Shown: piece by piece, positions 3,261 through 7,620 of the stretch
Numbering within the stretch: the first letter of the stretch is position 1
Layout of the letters: each line of letters starts with the position of its first letter
DNA from: Patescibacteria group bacterium
GTDB taxonomy: Bacteria; Patescibacteriota; Patescibacteriia; UBA2591; UBA6264
DNA: 7,620 bases
Direction: 5' to 3'
NCBI GenBank assembly: GCA_028713575.1
Contig: JAQTOB010000003.1
Span: forward strand, 73,026-80,645
Program-made: the position numbers and the translations under genes
Notes under the pieces: generated by a model
Databases searched by the model: none
Seen by the model: only the letters and a program-made list of their open reading frames with translations
What the model was told of the DNA's origin: nothing

Positions 3261-3668
3261 ATGACTGATCAACAATCTTCTTCATCTAAAACAATAGAAA
3301 ATAAAGAGCAAGAAGAACAGAAAAACCAAAAAAATGAAAACATTAAAATGCCTGAGATAAAACCCGGCATGACGGTAAAAGTATATCAGCGGATAAAAGA
3401 AACAGACGCCAAGGGTAATCCAAAAGAGAGGGTTCAGGTTTTTGAGGGAATCGTTATTGCCTGTAAGCACGGGCATCAGGCGGGCGCTACTTTTACGGTT
3501 CGCAAAATCGCGGTCGGCAATGTCGGCGTGGAAAAAATTTTCCCCATTGATTGCCCGACCATTAAAAAAGTAGAGATAGTTAAAGAATATAAAGTAAAAA
3601 AGGCGAAACTGTATTTTTTAAGAAATTATAAGAAAAAATTGAAAGAAAAAAAACGGCAGGAAAAATAA
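3261..3668 (+). CDS. rplS: 50S ribosomal protein L19 with low-complexity N- and C-terminal extensions
   Basis: The core IKPGMTVKVYQRI...ERVQVFEGIVIA...TFTVRKIAVGNVGVEKIFP...AKLYFLR aligns by eye to bacterial L19. About 30 extra Q/E/K/S-rich residues sit at the N-terminus and a K-rich tail at the C-terminus. Confidence 0.92.
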   Translation: MTDQQSSSSKTIENKEQEEQKNQKNENIKMPEIKPGMTVKVYQRIKETDAKGNPKERVQVFEGIVIACKHGHQAGATFTVRKIAVGNVGVEKIFPIDCPTIKKVEIVKEYKVKKAKLYFLRNYKKKLKEKKRQEK

Positions 3669-3683
3669 GTTTCTGTTGTTTAG

Positions 3684-3767
3684 GCCCAGGTGGCGTAATT
3701 TGGTAAACGCAATAGACTGAGGCTCTATGCTCGTCAGAGCGTGCGGGTTCAAGTCCCGCCCTGGGCA
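3684..3767 (+). tRNA. tRNA-Leu (anticodon GAG), class II long variable arm, no encoded CCA
   Basis: Acceptor GCCCAGG/CCTGGGC; 3-bp D stem GCG/CGC with a 12-nt loop; anticodon arm ATAGA-CTGAGGC-TCTAT (anticodon GAG, G37). Variable arm GCTC-GTCA-GAGC-GT; T arm GCGGG-TTCAAGT-CCCGC. Discriminator A3767 is followed by TCC, not CCA. Confidence 0.92.
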
Positions 3768-3847
3768 TCCTCCTACGTTAAAACTTCGGAGGACGAGAAT
3801 ACCTAAATCCATCCTCGCCTCGCCCTCCGTAGCCTTGGCGAAGGAGG
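3768..3847. mobile_element. 80-bp insert between the two copies of the tRNA-Leu 3' end; imperfect terminal inverted repeats
   Basis: The ends CCTCCTACG (3769-3777) and CGAAGGAGG (3839-3847) are inverted repeats matching at 8 of 9 positions. Internal hairpins are TCCTCC(3768-3773)/GGAGGA(3788-3793) and CCCTCC(3823-3828)/GGAGGG(3843-3848). The insert has no coding capacity. Calling it a mobile remnant is inference. Confidence 0.3.
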
Positions 3848-3873
3848 GGGTTCAAGTCCCGCCCTGGGCACCA
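3846..3873 (+). pseudogene. Orphan tRNA-Leu 3' fragment (T arm + acceptor 3' strand + CCA)
   Basis: GGGTTCAAGTCCCGCCCTGGGCA (3848-3870) is identical to 3745-3767 of the intact tRNA-Leu. Here the T stem has a G.G mismatch (GGGGG/CCCGC). No matching 5' acceptor strand (G[CT][CT][CT][AG]GG) exists at a tRNA-compatible distance upstream in 3768-3847; the closest string, GCCTTGG at 3832-3838, is 1 off and too close. It is followed by CCA at 3871-3873. Confidence 0.75.
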
Positions 3874-3982: not shown

Positions 3983-4056
3983 GGGCCCGTGGTATACCGG
4001 TAACACGCTTCCATGGCATGGAAGAGTAAGGGGTCCGATTCCCCTCGGGTCCACCA
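3983..4056 (+). tRNA. tRNA-Ala (anticodon GGC), CCA encoded
   Basis: Acceptor GGGCCCG/CGGGTCC includes the G3:U70 alanine identity pair. Anticodon arm CTTCC-ATGGCAT-GGAAG (anticodon GGC). T arm AGGGG-TCCGATT-CCCCT. Short D arm GTAT-ACCGGTA-ACAC with one A.C mismatch. Discriminator A4053, CCA at 4054-4056. Confidence 0.88.
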
Positions 4057-4060
4057 AAAA

Positions 4061-4087
4061 GAGTTTTTCATTTGAAAAACTCTTTTT
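4061..4087 (+). terminator. Intrinsic terminator closing the tRNA-Val...tRNA-Ala unit (A-tract upstream, so potentially bidirectional)
   Basis: A perfect 9-bp stem GAGTTTTTC (4061-4069) / GAAAAACTC (4074-4082) with loop ATTT is followed by TTTTT (4083-4087) and preceded by AAAAA (4056-4060). The stem is AU-rich, so strength is uncertain. Confidence 0.6.
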
Positions 4088-4253
4088 GGTAGCTTGTTTA
4101 TTCTTGAGCTGTTTTTTTTGGACGCCCTTGTATAATTTTATAAAACTAATAAACTGGAGATAGTTAAGTAATTATGATAAATAATCATATCCTGAGTTCG
4201 TATAATATACAAGAAGACATAGACATTGCTCATATAATTCGCATAATAACGAG

Positions 4254-4283
4254 TTGTGACGAAATAATGAAAGGTTTTAGAAT
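4254..4283 (+). promoter_or_regulatory. Candidate sigma70-type promoter for the lipoprotein gene
   Basis: TTGTGA (4254-4259), 18-nt spacer, TAGAAT (4278-4283), about 50 nt upstream of the ATG at 4336. AT-rich background makes chance matches likely. Confidence 0.25.
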
Positions 4284-4298
4284 TTCTTTCAGAAATTC
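4280..4298. promoter_or_regulatory. 8-bp perfect palindrome/hairpin overlapping the candidate -10
   Basis: GAATTTCT (4280-4287), loop TTC, AGAAATTC (4291-4298). It could be an operator or a 5'-UTR hairpin. Confidence 0.3.
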
Positions 4299-4335
4299 CA
4301 TTTGGGACAATTTTTAATTTTTTAACCATAAAATC

Positions 4336-5094
4336 ATGAAAACTTCAAAAACAATTATTTTTTTTTCACTAATAACAATAACGATATTTCTTACTGGATG
4401 TTCCCAGGAAAAAAATAATGTTGTTAATCTGCAAAAAACAACAGACAATACTTCGCAGACAGGAGAAGCTACTACTAATCAAGAAAAAATTACTAGAATT
4501 AACAACACAGAGAGTGTTCATGAAGAAAAAGACGAAATAGAAGAATTATCTAAAAAATATGATAATTGGAATGTTGTTGAAAATCGAGAACATGGTTTTA
4601 TATTTAAGTTTCCAAAAGAATGGGTGGGGTTGTATGAAGGACCATATATACCAGAAGATTTTGATGTTAATGCATATAATCATTTTCTTCTTTCTCTAAA
4701 AAACAGAATAAATAAAAGTTGTTTAAATATACGCGTAGATGTAAATCCTTGGCCATTTAAGAAAGACGGCACTCAAGAAAAGGATTATTGCAATCCATCC
4801 CAAACAGAAATATTTGAAAAATGCATTGATAAAATTATTGGCTTCAAAGGTGATACATATTTTGGGGAAATAATTTCAGATTATAGTATTCAAATTCCTT
4901 TTAAAAATAGAATCATTGAATCAAAAAGGAAGGGGAATGGTTCATATTACTATAAACATGCTTTTGTTAATGTAAACAATAGAGTATTAAGTTTTACTCT
5001 TGTTGGTGATTCGCAAGCTCAAGATGATAGTGAATGTCAAAATTTTATTAAAACTATGGATGTTATAGTTGAATCAGTATCAACTCAAAATTAA
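4336..5094 (+). CDS. Lipoprotein of unknown function
   Basis: 252-aa ORF with a signal peptide, MKTSKTIIFFSLITITIFLTGC, and lipobox L-T-G-C at Cys22. A low-complexity T/N/Q/E linker follows, then a globular region with several Cys. I recognise no family motif. Confidence 0.75.
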   Translation: MKTSKTIIFFSLITITIFLTGCSQEKNNVVNLQKTTDNTSQTGEATTNQEKITRINNTESVHEEKDEIEELSKKYDNWNVVENREHGFIFKFPKEWVGLYEGPYIPEDFDVNAYNHFLLSLKNRINKSCLNIRVDVNPWPFKKDGTQEKDYCNPSQTEIFEKCIDKIIGFKGDTYFGEIISDYSIQIPFKNRIIESKRKGNGSYYYKHAFVNVNNRVLSFTLVGDSQAQDDSECQNFIKTMDVIVESVSTQN

Positions 5095-5148
5095 AAATTG
5101 TCCCGAATGATTTTACTATCGCAAAATAAAAACTTTTCATCGCATCGC

Positions 5149-5238
5149 ATAACACGGCATATACGGCTTCGCTCCTGCTAATCGCTCCACCCATATTGCT
5201 CTGCAATATCGTATATGCTGAAACGTTATCGGAAATTT
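5149..5238 (+). repeat. Structured repeat element, copy A (attC-like hairpin or unnamed cis-RNA)
   Basis: Outer pair ATAAC (5149-5153) / GTTAT (5225-5229). Internal loop AC versus GAAAC. 10-bp stem GGCATATACG (5156-5165) / CGTATATGCT (5210-5219). Inner hairpin ATATTGC-TCT-GCAATAT (5193-5209). Conserved tail GAAATT (5232-5237). Homologous to 7091-7184. Confidence 0.8.
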
Positions 5239-5267
5239 ATTTTTGTTTTATCTAATAAACACCTAAT

Positions 5268-5699
5268 ATGAATAAATCTTTTTCTCTTTTTCTTGAACAA
5301 CTGAGAAAATTTAATCTACCGGAGGGTAAATTCGCTATTTTCGGGAGCGGCCCTCTTGGCATAAGAAATATTAGAGATACCCACGATCTTGACCTTATAG
5401 TAGATGAATCGCTTTTTGACGAATACAAAACTATGCCAGGTTGGGAGCTTAAAAGCTTTAATAGAGATGGTCGTTATATTGAGATGATCGAAAATAGCGG
5501 AATTGAATTCTATAAAACCTGGGGTCCCGGGGACTGGAACACTAGTCAACTAATTGACAATGCAGAGATTATTGATGATTTACCCTTTGTGAGATTGGAG
5601 GAAGTAAAAAGGTGGAAAGAAATATCTAAAAGAGAAAAAGATTTAGAAGACATTCAATTAATTGACGAGTATTTTAAAGATTATCCTTCTAAATTTTAG
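5268..5699 (+). CDS. Minimal nucleotidyltransferase-fold protein (pol-beta superfamily, MNT/KNTase-like)
   Basis: 143-aa ORF. FAIFGSGPLGIRNIRDTHDLDLIV fits the hG[GS]-x(9-13)-DhDh NTase signature. The C-terminal helical part ends in KREKDLEDIQLI. Substrate unknown. Confidence 0.6.
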   Translation: MNKSFSLFLEQLRKFNLPEGKFAIFGSGPLGIRNIRDTHDLDLIVDESLFDEYKTMPGWELKSFNRDGRYIEMIENSGIEFYKTWGPGDWNTSQLIDNAEIIDDLPFVRLEEVKRWKEISKREKDLEDIQLIDEYFKDYPSKF

Positions 5700-5740
5700 A
5701 AATACTATTATAATTCAAAGGGAAGTTTCCGAAATTTTCC

Positions 5741-5765
5741 ACATACCAAAACGTTACACGCAATC
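5741..5765 (+). repeat. Possible solo half-copy of the 3' arm of the structured repeat
   Basis: CCAAAACGTTACACGCAATC (5746-5765) matches CCGAAACGTTATACGAAATT of copy B (7164-7183) at 16 of 20 positions, preceded by ACATA versus GATATG. No complementary 5' arm was found upstream. Confidence 0.3.
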
Positions 5766-5892
5766 ACAAAAAATATTTTTTAACAGGCCAGGGACTAATA
5801 TTTTTAATAAGGTAAAAAGTAGTCAAAATAGTTCTAAATTTGGAAAATCGTTCCGAAACGCTTTGTTGATGAGGGTATTGGGGCGGCAGTTT

Positions 5893-5937
5893 AGGGGGAC
5901 AGTCCCCACTTAAAAAGGGGGACAGTCCCCACTTAAA
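5893..5937. repeat. Tandem 22-nt direct repeat, each unit carrying a 13-bp palindrome (operator-like)
   Basis: AGGGGGACAGTCCCCACTTAAA occurs at 5893-5914 and 5916-5937, a 23-bp period. Each unit contains GGGGAC-A-GTCCCC (5895-5907 and 5918-5930). The repeat ends 8 nt before the -35 of the Fic promoter. Confidence 0.8.
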
Positions 5938-5945
5938 TTAAAAAT

Positions 5946-5973
5946 TTGACCTATTCTCTTAATATGGTATACT
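5946..5973 (+). promoter_or_regulatory. Near-consensus sigma70-type promoter with extended -10 for the Fic gene
   Basis: TTGACC (5946-5951), 16-nt spacer, TGgTATACT (5965-5973). The predicted start near 5980 gives a ~28-nt leader before the ATG at 6008. Confidence 0.6.
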
Positions 5974-6000
5974 ATAGATAATTAACTAAACCATATTAAG
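5958..6000. promoter_or_regulatory. 10-bp perfect inverted repeat bracketing the -10 and the leader of the Fic gene
   Basis: CTTAATATGG (5958-5967) and CCATATTAAG (5991-6000) are separated by 23 nt. The left arm overlaps the spacer and TG of the extended -10. The right arm ends 7 nt before the ATG. Confidence 0.6.
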
Positions 6001-6007
6001 TGTTTTT

Positions 6008-6961
6008 ATGACTTATTTATCTCCTATAGTAAAAAAACGTTTGGAAGAAAAACTTACCAAACTTAATAAACTTCGACCATTACCGAAGTCCGCGATACAA
6101 AAATTACGAGAGAAATTTCAAATAGAAATGACCTATAATTCAAACGCCATTGAAGGTAACTCTTTGACCCTAAAAGAGACTTTTTTGGTTATCAACGAGG
6201 GCATAACGGTCAAAGGAAAACCTTTAAAAGATCACTTGGAAGCGAAAGATCACTATGCCGCGCTGGAATATCTATATGACCTGATAGATAAGAACAAAAA
6301 ACATACCATCTCTGAAATGCTTATACAAAATTTGCATCAAATTATTATTCAGGAAACTGATAAAAAGTGGGCTGGACGATACAGAAATGCCAATGTTATT
6401 ATAGGCGGAGCAAAACACACGCCACCAGATGCATTACAGGTGCCACAAAAAATGATAAATTTAATCAGTTGGCTTAAGACACAGAAAAATAAAATAAATA
6501 TTATTGAACTTTCTGCTCTACTACATCATAAATTGGTTCATATTCACCCATTTTTTGACGGCAATGGCAGAACCGCGCGTTTAACAATGAATTTACTGCT
6601 CATGCAAACAGGCTATCCCCTTGTCATTATTTTGAAAAACGATCGTAAAAAATATTATGATGTGTTGGGAAAAGCAGATAGTGGAAAATACGAACCCCTG
6701 GTAAAATTTATCGCCCAATCCGTAGAGCGTTCACTTGATATTTATCTGAAAACCTTAACGCCAGCAACGATAAAACAAGAAAAATTTATTTCACTGACTG
6801 AAATATCTAAAACCACATCTTTCTCTGCAAAATATTTAAATCTACTGGCAAGGCAAGGAAAATTGGAAGCATATAAAGAAGGCAGAAATTGGTTGACTTC
6901 AAGAGAAGCGGTTGAGCGATATCTGAAAAATAGAACTCGACAAAGAAAAAAAGGGAAATAA
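6008..6961 (+). CDS. Class II Fic-domain protein (AMPylase-type) with N-terminal inhibitory motif and C-terminal excisionase/MerR-like HTH
   Basis: 317-aa ORF with the canonical Fic motif HPFFDGNGRTARL. The N-terminal SNAIEG matches the auto-inhibitory [ST]xxxE[GN] motif placed as in class II Fic proteins. The C-terminal ISLTEISKTTSFSAKYLNLLARQGKLEAYKEGRNWLTSREAVERYL resembles HTH_17/excisionase-type DNA-binding domains. Confidence 0.9.
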   Translation: MTYLSPIVKKRLEEKLTKLNKLRPLPKSAIQKLREKFQIEMTYNSNAIEGNSLTLKETFLVINEGITVKGKPLKDHLEAKDHYAALEYLYDLIDKNKKHTISEMLIQNLHQIIIQETDKKWAGRYRNANVIIGGAKHTPPDALQVPQKMINLISWLKTQKNKINIIELSALLHHKLVHIHPFFDGNGRTARLTMNLLLMQTGYPLVIILKNDRKKYYDVLGKADSGKYEPLVKFIAQSVERSLDIYLKTLTPATIKQEKFISLTEISKTTSFSAKYLNLLARQGKLEAYKEGRNWLTSREAVERYLKNRTRQRKKGK

Positions 6962-6969
6962 ATCAGAGC

Positions 6970-7016
6970 CTTGGCTCCAGGGCATTTATCCCCGGCTTCC
7001 CTGCCCCCACGCCAAG
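6970..7016 (+). other. C-rich bipartite hairpin immediately after the Fic stop codon
   Basis: CTTGGC (6970-6975) pairs with GCCAAG (7011-7016), and CAGGG (6978-6982) pairs with CCCTG (6999-7003). No U-tract follows, so it is not a canonical terminator. It is a GC-rich island in an AT-rich context. Confidence 0.35.
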
Positions 7017-7090
7017 ACAAAAATAAAATTTGTTCATTATAGAAAAGCGGTCTCGCTGAGGAGAGACAAAAAAGAAAGGAATACATCAGC

Positions 7091-7184
7091 TAACACGGCA
7101 TATCTGGTTCGTACTTTTCTCCGAAAAATGCTTTCCCAAATTGCTATCGCAACTTCAGATATGCCGAAACGTTATACGAAATTG
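7091..7184 (+). repeat. Structured repeat element, copy B
   Basis: Outer pair TAAC (7091-7094) / GTTA (7171-7174). Internal loop AC versus GAAAC. 10-bp stem GGCATATCTG (7097-7106) / CAGATATGCC (7156-7165). Inner hairpin AAATTGC-TATC-GCAACTT (7138-7155, one A.C mismatch). Tail GAAATT (7178-7183). Confidence 0.8.
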
Positions 7185-7205
7185 TTCTAATTTTTTACCC
7201 AATTT

Positions 7206-7620
7206 ATGAATGATATTTTTTTAGTTTTCGGGTACGGGATACCCAAGAACATTCTGAAAGACGAAAATTATAATTTTTATTTAAAAATGGTCTTTAATAA
7301 GATTTATGATTTTGTCGTAAAAAACAAAATTGTTAAACCGATAATCATTACTTGTGGCGGCGAAACGGATATGTTAAAGCCATACAAACGTACTGAAGCT
7401 GCTGAGATGATAAAATTGTTTAGTGCCTTTATTAAAGAACGACCATTTTTAAATCCAATAACCAAAAATTGGCTTTTCATTCCTGAAAATAAATCTCTTT
7501 CAACTTTGGAAAATTTATTAAACAGCAATAAGATAATTCAAAAGCAAAAAATTAAAAAGGCCAGTTTTTTCATCTTCTGCGAGCAAACATGTGAGAAGCG
7601 AATCAAAATTCTTGCCAAAA
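7206..7620 (+). CDS. DUF218 / YdcF-SanA-ElyC-like protein, 3'-truncated by the window edge
   Basis: The ORF is open from ATG 7206 to the window end (138 codons, checked by hand). An in-frame stop at 7188-7190 lies upstream, and the ORF is absent from the track because it has no stop. Motifs TCGGETD...RTEAAEM and ENKSLSTLEN fit the DUF218 pattern (GG...EA..M, E..S.[NS]T.EN). Confidence 0.6.
   Translation, partial: MNDIFLVFGYGIPKNILKDENYNFYLKMVFNKIYDFVVKNKIVKPIIITCGGETDMLKPYKRTEAAEMIKLFSAFIKERPFLNPITKNWLFIPENKSLSTLENLLNSNKIIQKQKIKKASFFIFCEQTCEKRIKILAK

Follow-up and report, generated by a model that had tools for sequence, protein, structure and literature searches.

The stretch analysed here, called the window, is 7,620 nt of contig JAQTOB010000003.1 from a metagenome-assembled genome (MAG) of the Patescibacteria, or candidate phyla radiation (CPR). 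It is low in GC and carries housekeeping genes for a CCA-adding enzyme, an RluD-type pseudouridine synthase, guanylate kinase and ribosomal protein L19 together with three tRNAs, followed by accessory open reading frames (ORFs). Among the latter stand two copies, A and B, of a hairpin element that a first-pass annotation had placed next to accessory genes, with the ATGs at 5268 and 7206 located 3' of the respective copies; both placements hold. Integrons are the textbook gene-capture platforms, and the two hairpins probably represent attC-type recombination sites that bound gene cassettes, making up an integron-like array in a CPR genome. This reading, to which a probability of about 0.78 is attached, draws on a large family of related hairpins, their arrangement in arrays, the covariation of the stem, linkage of the hairpin to the upstream cassette, a break in homology at GTT, and an associated recombinase and attI-like site.

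Loci are numbered with the prefix L; L001 is the wider stretch around the window, on a 517-kb contig, in which the window occupies 3991-11610. An arrow marks the point of exchange. The array is laid out as follows, in window coordinates except where L001 is given:

4197-4265, plus strand: attI-like site, read directly from the sequence, with a direct repeat TTCGTATAATATACAA (4197-4212) and a second repeat plus core, TTCGCATAA-TAACGAG-TTGTGACGAAAT (4238-4265)
G4253↓T4254, plus strand: putative crossover in the attI-like site
4254-5225, plus strand: cassette 1, with a 5' end module (4261-4325), an ORF (4336-5094), a 3' end module (5085-5146) and attC A
5142-5236, plus strand: attC-like site A, with GCATC, R'' GCATAAC (5147-5153), spacer A5154, L stem (5155-5165 / 5210-5220), a variable tip with an inner hairpin (5193-5209), spacer AAAC (5221-5224), R' GTTATCG (5225-5231) and GAAAT (5232-5236)
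5226-5755, plus strand: cassette 2, with an ORF (5268-5699, 143 aa) and then a degenerate attC, 3' half only, at about 5733-5755 (..ACATACCAAAACGTT)
5754-7171, plus strand: cassette 3 (Fic), with a conserved 5' leader (5756-5913), a tandem repeat of two AGGGGGACAGTCCCCACTTAAA units (5893-5937), a Fic/helix-turn-helix (HTH) ORF (6008-6961) and, over 7020-7171, a 3' module with a hairpin (7020-7087) followed by attC B
7083-7182, plus strand: attC-like site B, with ACATC, R'' AGCTAAC (7088-7094), spacer A7095, L stem (7096-7106 / 7156-7166), a branched variable tip, spacer AAAC (7167-7170), R' GTTATAC (7171-7177) and GAAAT (7178-7182)
7172-7620, plus strand: start of cassette 4, with an ORF that runs from 7206 past the window end (228 aa in L001, weak DUF218 match)
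L001 11884-11989: copy C, the attC of cassette 4, a third copy about 700 nt beyond the window and nearly identical to B

Copies A and B share the identical 13-nt 5' block described in the first-pass annotation (TAACACGGCATAT, exact at 5150-5162 and 7091-7103), and their 3' blocks, also described as alike, were aligned as a repeat (5203-5237 with 7149-7183). The two copies keep the common fold that had been proposed: as single-stranded DNA (ssDNA), copy A forms the stem CGGCATATACG/CGTATATGCTG (5155-5165 / 5210-5220) and copy B the stem CGGCATATCTG/CAGATATGCCG (7096-7106 / 7156-7166), in each case with an inner hairpin against the 3' arm. The stem was given as 10 bp; it exists, but its length is 11 bp, as C5155 also pairs with G5220 and C7096 with G7166. 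With a stem of this length, the asymmetric internal loop is retained but consists of A opposite AAAC, not AC opposite GAAAC. The compensatory change from AC..GT to CT..AG between the two copies is real and extends across 147 distinct family members, and compensatory change over some 150 copies shows, as had been proposed, that the hairpin itself is under selection. A scan of the window against Rfam (4227 covariance models, E<=1) returned only tRNAs and chance hits, with no match at 5100-5300 or 7050-7250, so that the hairpin still belongs to no named Rfam family.

Had no further copies been present, the pair could have been taken for a local duplication with drift. That explanation was dispelled by a scan of metagenomes with the pattern AACACGGCAT..ATGCYGAAACGTT, which matched at least 120 other contigs, mostly from groundwater, aquifer and sediment samples. 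Among the matches listed there are 92 distinct cores of 65-95 nt, and a covariance model (CM) built from 91 of them identified 214 copies in 100 loci, with a total site length of 47-215 nt. Sixty loci carry two to seven copies; in 59 of these all copies are on one strand, and the median spacing is 883 nt. Of 93 intervals between neighbouring copies, 85 have a longest ORF that points the same way as the copies, and the longest ORF takes up a median of 80% of the interval. In the window, sites A and B were scored by the model (R1) at 86.2 and 95.0 bits on the plus strand versus 11.2 and 21.1 bits on the minus strand, respectively, and site B has an ssDNA fold z of -3.1. By the same model, A and B are 1941 nt apart and copy C lies 811 nt further. 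In L002, a second assembly of the same strain, the array is 100% identical.

The consensus of the family may be written as (A)CATC-nnnn-AAC-A-(11-bp stem)-variable tip-(stem)-NNAC-GTT-nnnn-GAAAT, where the tip consists of one or two hairpins or none. Diverged copies retain AACA..ACGTT and replace the whole stem (CGGCATAT, GCGTATAT, CAGTATAT, GCGGATAT, AGGACTAT, CCGAATAT, GAGACTAG and others). Over the 147 distinct copies, 97.3% of cells are paired and about 96-97% of L-stem cells pair perfectly, percentages that are somewhat inflated because the alignment was fitted to the model. Both-sided changes occur at all 11 stem pairs, with 333 double-change cells observed versus 82 +/- 12 in shuffled alignments, and pairing falls to 25-48% when the partners are slid as a control. 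The AAC:GTT pairs are present in 98.9% of the copies; for the first 92 copies the search pattern itself demanded these outer pairs, and they recur in the diverged copies that the CM added. All 147 copies have A as the 5' spacer; the opposite NNAC spacer is 4 nt long in 126 of them and 3 nt long in 19, compared with spacers of 5 versus 6 nt in the aadA1 attC of R100. One bulged G is found on the 3' arm in 15 copies. Wobble G.T pairs are rare among the 1617 stem cells, 11 on the plus strand and 21 on the minus strand; the counts lean weakly to the bottom strand, and as a means of strand choice the difference is not significant.

The 4-mers next to the outer pairs follow the patterns R-Y/K-M-Y before AAC and R-K-N-Y after GTT. 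They do not covary (2.18 pairs observed versus 2.24 shuffled), thus the two sides assort independently, as expected if they stem from different cassettes. An extended outer helix, for which AGCT/AGCT and ATAT/ATAT look complementary, was rejected since these 4-mers do not covary above shuffles.

When compared with the attC layout described for integrons (PMC4889954), the predicted hairpin layout matches an integron attC site in its inverse core, its core, an L stem kept in structure only and a variable terminal structure; an unpaired spacer is present as well, but an asymmetric one. The R'' and R' boxes conform to RYYYAAC / GTTRRRY with conserved AAC and GTT, the L stem is preserved in structure and not in sequence, and the terminal structure varies. 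This architecture, with ..AAC as inverse core and GTT.. as core in a cassette array, had been overlooked in the first-pass annotation.

An attC site is carried by the cassette upstream of it, and the hairpins follow this rule. The core identity is 0.81 in 225 locus pairs with the same left flank and a different right flank; in 16 locus pairs with the same right flank and a different left flank it is 0.56, against a background of 0.53. Furthermore, the sequences of L041 and L064 are the same up to the end of ..GAAACGTT, and from the following base they are unrelated. From this linkage and this break, the hairpin travels with the upstream ORF and exchange takes place at G↓TT, as in integrons. 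A crossover on the 5' side, hinted at by the asymmetry of the 3' arm and by the pair L015/L038, is ruled out by the same two observations. They also overturn the earlier view of the element as a 5' untranslated region (UTR) of the downstream gene; of the suggestion that it acts as RNA or as ssDNA, the ssDNA half may hold and the 5'-UTR half fell. In composition, the loci are cassette arrays, with co-oriented single-ORF cassettes, each with its own attC-like site and a G↓TT crossover.

Across the family, cassette products include ACT, NUDIX, nucleotidyltransferase, glyoxalase and MazG proteins together with many unknowns, and in the window a Fic protein. Many cassettes have end modules of about 70 nt, in forward orientation ahead of the hairpin and in reverse orientation behind the preceding GTT. 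Each module is a variable hairpin between A/T runs, with compensatory hairpin changes, and they occur in contigs from many samples. The window modules are at 4261-4325, 5085-5146 and 7020-7087. As modules stand in opposite orientation at the cassette ends, a 23-nt inverted repeat with 96% identity (4299-4321 / 5087-5109) flanks the 252-aa ORF of cassette 1, and a circularised cassette would extend the palindrome. The modules may serve in insulation, as an extended recombination site or in accessory protein binding. One of them scores as a terminator of antisense transcription (7067-7050, minus strand).

With respect to the individual cassettes of the window, the ORF of cassette 1 (4336-5094) is lipoprotein-like with no Pfam family above threshold, and the ORF of cassette 2 (5268-5699) has no Pfam match. 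The degenerate attC at the end of cassette 2 (about 5733-5762; CM hit 5733-5767) scores just 7.7 bits (E 3.4, not significant) and is thus considered a remnant and not a functional-looking site. From 5746, ten bases before GTT, the remnant together with the next 160 nt matches the junction that follows copy C at 82% identity (L001 9736-9903 aligned with L001 11965-12130). With filters off, the CM identified in the window, beyond sites A and B, only this remnant and antisense echoes. The Fic ORF of cassette 3 (6008-6961; Pfam Fic, 2.1e-23) encodes a product with a C-terminal HTH, and the left-flank module of the cassette is common to more than 20 contigs. A promoter and terminator scan placed a promoter-like TTGACC-16-TATACT with TG at 5946-5973, the best such site of the region, 5' of the ORF. 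Just 5' of this site and of the Fic gene, each AGGGGGACAGTCCCCACTTAAA unit holds the palindrome GGGGACAGTCCCC; the repeat may be an autoregulatory operator for the Fic gene. Two cassettes further on, the homologous leader (L001 about 12115) has the motif once.

In related loci, the arrays are joined to a recombinase. A gene for a tyrosine recombinase of about 271 aa is located upstream of the plus-strand array and divergent from it in 14 of 14 loci examined. Between this gene and the first cassette is an attI-like site with a direct repeat TTCGCATAAYATAC and a second repeat ending in AAC(G/C)AG↓TTnnnnGAAAT (L009, L049, L033), directly after which come typical cassette 5' ends. The site was identified in 12 of 12 integrase loci with upstream DNA. 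The association was also approached from the protein side with relatives of the L009 recombinase (at least 53% identity) in species-representative genomes, and CM hits in the expected orientation were found at 8 of 10 loci with upstream DNA. These relatives belong to Patescibacteria MAGs labelled Veblen-, Moranii-, Buchanan-, Uhr-, Magasanik- and Saccharibacteria; a few further contigs with such relatives are probably mis-binned. Thus, the integron arrangement of a recombinase divergent from an adjoining array with attI in between is present in related loci, and of this arrangement the window has the attI-like site only. In place of an integrase gene, tRNA-Ala (3983-4056) and a terminator hairpin (4053-4090) precede the site.

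In L128, attC-like hits are also found 3' of the recombinase gene (3599-3704 and 4888-5002), on the same strand as the upstream ones, which suggests a rearranged or second array. At a distance of 6 kb from an attC copy, L042 encodes a 356-aa XerA-like recombinase with an N-terminal extension (11276-12346). Its gene points the same way as the array, unlike in an integron, and the enzyme may be another Xer-type recombinase, different from the first, in a CPR contig.

The array-linked recombinase is annotated publicly as XerD or as a generic tyrosine recombinase. Its best NCBIfam family is TIGR02249 (integron integrase), matched in two stretches at 208-228 bits, short of the cutoff of 265, and NF040815 (XerA / 'integron integrase') follows closely. 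The best PDB matches are IntI4 (2A3V, 3.8e-46, two stretches) and XerA (4A8E, 1.9e-45), with XerD at 7.5e-21. A BLASTP alignment with IntI1 gave 33% identity and aligned all of the catalytic residues (R, K, HxxR, H, Y); the IntI1 query was 100% identical to the annotated intI1 of R100, and a tblastn search with it matched 16 loci. Recombinases 35-46% identical, about 270 aa long and likewise without the I2 insertion of integron integrases, are encoded in Bacteroidota (Flavobacterium, Paenimyroides and Chitinophagaceae; L142-L156), and the CPR attC model found no hairpins near them.

Several observations weigh against an integron. In the alignment with IntI1, gaps fall over residues 195-224, the additional domain or I2 helix, and over 241-250. 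None of about 30 recombinase loci near arrays has the I2 insertion of a canonical IntI, so the IntI-specific domain is missing from the array-linked enzyme, which is about 65 aa shorter than IntI1. The domain is treated as defining, being the dock for the extrahelical bases of attC (PMC7790495; PMC9668308). The recombinase also scores nearly as well to archaeal XerA as to integron integrases. Docking of I2 on extrahelical bases is regarded as the defining integron innovation, by which folded single strands became open to recombination (Escudero 2020, PMC7790495; reportedly also Messier and Roy 2001 and MacDonald 2006). Extrahelical bases were not found in the L box of the 147 copies beyond the 15 with one bulged G, and the extra bases that give the site its asymmetry are on the 3' arm (the cassette-sense strand), opposite to the 5' arm in the aadA1 attC of R100. 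The inflation of the pairing percentages belongs on the same side. At the window locus itself, no recombinase or integrase gene is present in the window or within 10 kb of the array. Finally, no circular junctions or population variants that would speak directly for excision came to light, the one second assembly (L002) having the same array. A recombinase without I2 and an L stem without extrahelical bases may be considered together as a matched departure of protein and site from the canonical integron.

One rival reading is serious. In this alternative, which is judged unlikely, the recombinase of about 271 aa is the sole chromosome-dimer resolvase of the lineage, the 'attI' site is a dif site adjoining the gene as in XerS/difSL, and the cassettes hijack it by means of a dif-mimicking hairpin like the CTX phage, an integrative mobile element exploiting Xer (IMEX). 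The lack of I2 and the XerA-like scores favor this explanation, and inverted arms (..CATAA / TTAT..AAAT) around a 7-nt centre are common to the site and to the Xer systems (XerCD/dif, XerA, XerS/difSL, XerH/difH). The attI-like core TTCGCATAA-TAACGAG-TTATCGGAAAT resembles E. coli dif (GGTGCGCATAA-TGTATA-TTATGTTAAAT). Since the arms of attI1 in class 1 integrons are inverted in the same way, this resemblance does not separate the integron from the Xer reading. The core site adjoins the recombinase gene as in XerS, where difSL is directly upstream of xerS (PMC1914069), and, as with the CTX phage, which integrates as folded ssDNA, a hairpin can mimic a duplex site and an asymmetric centre could block a second exchange. 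Xer-related recombinases of candidate phyla have been placed in an Xer-like 'Cand' group with a presumed housekeeping function and are assumed to be Xer replacements (Smyshlyaev et al. 2021, PMC8138268).

Replication polarity and array structure speak against this rival. The sign of the GC skew changes near the gene in L137 and L139, both ambiguous loci; in contrast, L001 has positive skew to the left and right of the array, and the sign stays the same across the gene in L132, L126 and L127, so these four loci are not at a replication terminus. The window retains attI and an array without a recombinase gene, which would be unlikely for an essential xer/dif unit. Unlike Xer systems, the loci hold ordered arrays of up to seven single-ORF cassettes with one attC-style hairpin each, the pattern of an integron, and unlike bacterial XerD, the recombinase matches IntI4 and XerA far better. 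The integron and Xer readings could also shade together, as an integron built on an Xer-like platform.

Far less probable is a non-autonomous palindromic repeat, either like a miniature inverted-repeat transposable element or a repetitive extragenic palindrome, or a set of bidirectional terminators, spread by transposition and unrelated to the mobility of neighboring genes. The element occurs in several intergenic copies, many of them flanked by long inverted-repeat modules that contain hairpins and A/T runs, one of these modules has the minus-strand terminator score given above (7067-7050), and a remnant of an insertion sequence (IS)-like transposase is present 6 kb downstream in L001. Such repeats would not account for copies that are co-oriented within loci and one ORF apart, or for arrays that begin, beside a conserved recombinase, at a site sharing the GTTnnnnGAAAT half. 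Homology breaks inside the element at GTT and not at its outer ends, and there are no target-site duplications, as the 4-mers on the two sides are different and show no match to one another.

A structured cis-regulatory RNA, that is, a riboswitch-like or protein-binding 5' UTR for the downstream accessory gene as the first-pass annotation was inclined to believe, is the least probable of all: strong hairpin covariation, a start codon 20-300 nt downstream and a CM score far higher on the plus than on the minus strand are set against downstream genes that are functionally unrelated, a core not linked to the downstream flank, a putative outer helix without covariation, no Rfam match, an unexplained association with a recombinase and attI, and wobble pairs so rare beside 333 double changes (11 and 21 on the two strands in 1617 cells) as to be more typical of pairing at the DNA level.

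If the hairpins are attC-type sites of an integron-like system, a mechanism may be suggested by analogy with integrons and with the CTX phage and XerC. One strand would extrude as a hairpin presenting an R box (AAC:GTT and its flanks), an asymmetric unpaired spacer and an L box, and monomers of the dedicated tyrosine recombinase would bind the R and L boxes. With attI or a second attC as partner, a single strand would then be swapped at G↓TT, which reads AA↓C on the complementary strand. The exchange would excise or insert circular cassettes, each an ORF with its downstream hairpin, and replication would resolve the product. The centre of 1 nt versus 3-4 nt would replace the usual means of choosing the strand and of blocking a second exchange. 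Folding as ssDNA, exchange of a single strand and the strand used are all modeled in this scheme on the better-known systems, and the window array might be mobilised in trans.

A comparison with known systems brings out both sides of this assignment. The likeness to integrons includes a recombinase divergent from attI and a co-oriented array of single-ORF cassettes; the inverse core ..AAC, the core GTT.., a structure-conserved L stem and a variable tip, with an unpaired but asymmetric spacer; a G↓TT crossover with a site that moves with the upstream ORF and sites that are homogeneous within an array; and cassettes with Fic, MazG, NUDIX, glyoxalase and many unknowns. Unlike integrons, the CPR recombinase has no I2, falls below the TIGR02249 cutoff and is shorter than IntI1 by the 65 aa noted above; the L stem of the sites is free of extrahelical bases and the spacer is strongly asymmetric, with 1 versus 3-4 nt, its longer side being on the arm opposite to the extra bases of the aadA1 attC; many cassettes have the inverted-repeat end modules that extend the palindrome; and the host is an ultra-small CPR genome. 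No complete integrons were reported in the ultra-small genome size class (Cury et al., PMC4889954).

Clusters of attC sites without an integrase (CALIN) and sedentary chromosomal integrons have been described (Cury et al. 2016, PMC4889954). With at least two sites within 4 kb and no integrase near, the window is similar to a CALIN, with the qualification that its sites were called by their own CM and CALIN are defined on the IntegronFinder attC model. As the window array has an attI-like site and no integrase gene, it may be considered a CALIN-like array that retains attI. There is also some likeness to the pdif modules of Acinetobacter plasmids, where accessory genes are bracketed by short Xer-like sites and are apparently shuffled as modules. 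In contrast, pdif sites are plain 28-bp duplex sites of the XerC/D type in alternating orientation, and the CPR sites are hairpins of 50-200 nt in direct orientation, anchored at attI beside a dedicated recombinase.

The array resembles a genomic island in that it is flanked by tRNA genes. Over L001 13500-15130, its right boundary is tRNA-Val(TAC), followed on the minus strand by a frameshifted IS-like transposase (HTH) and, beyond it, by tRNA-like sequences with long inserts. At its start (1-154), the window lies inside a tandem array (L001 3181-4144) of 5.7 copies of a 168-189-nt unit upstream of tRNA-Val. The last 2.4 copies are 100% identical, and 83 nt of the unit are found again in inverted orientation at L001 about 14948-15030. 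No gene was called in L001 970-4314. In the tRNA-Leu(GAG) region (3684-3870), an exact second copy of the last 23 nt of the tRNA, GGGTTCAAGTCCCGCCCTGGGCA (3745-3767), lies 103 nt downstream (3848-3870) and has CCA after it; the repeated 3' end looks like the leftover of an integration event or an alternative 3' half.

The hairpins themselves are thus of a known kind, attC-type, and the surrounding system departs from integrons in their two defining molecular features. In the literature that could be searched, nothing on integrons in combination with Patescibacteria, CPR, IntegronFinder or Xer hairpin cassettes turned out to describe it. The chances are evenly balanced that it is a CPR integron lineage, or a proto-integron on an Xer-like platform, which does without I2 and extrahelical bases and has an asymmetric spacer to set strand choice and single-strand exchange. 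Such a system might be a surviving link from Xer/IMEX recombination to integrons, or else hairpin-site cassette capture may have been solved independently here. Either way, software that looks for the IntI-specific domain would have overlooked it. Domain-based integron finders would by design skip CPR recombinases that are labelled XerD or generic tyrosine recombinase.

If the integron-like reading is true, integron-type cassette capture occurs in the CPR, a huge uncultivated radiation with genomes of 0.5-1 Mb. Capture would then work without I2 or extrahelical bases, and the origin of integrons from Xer-like recombinases would become testable in a natural system. For the organisms themselves, the arrays would reveal a mobile pool of accessory genes where such flexibility was thought to be poor.

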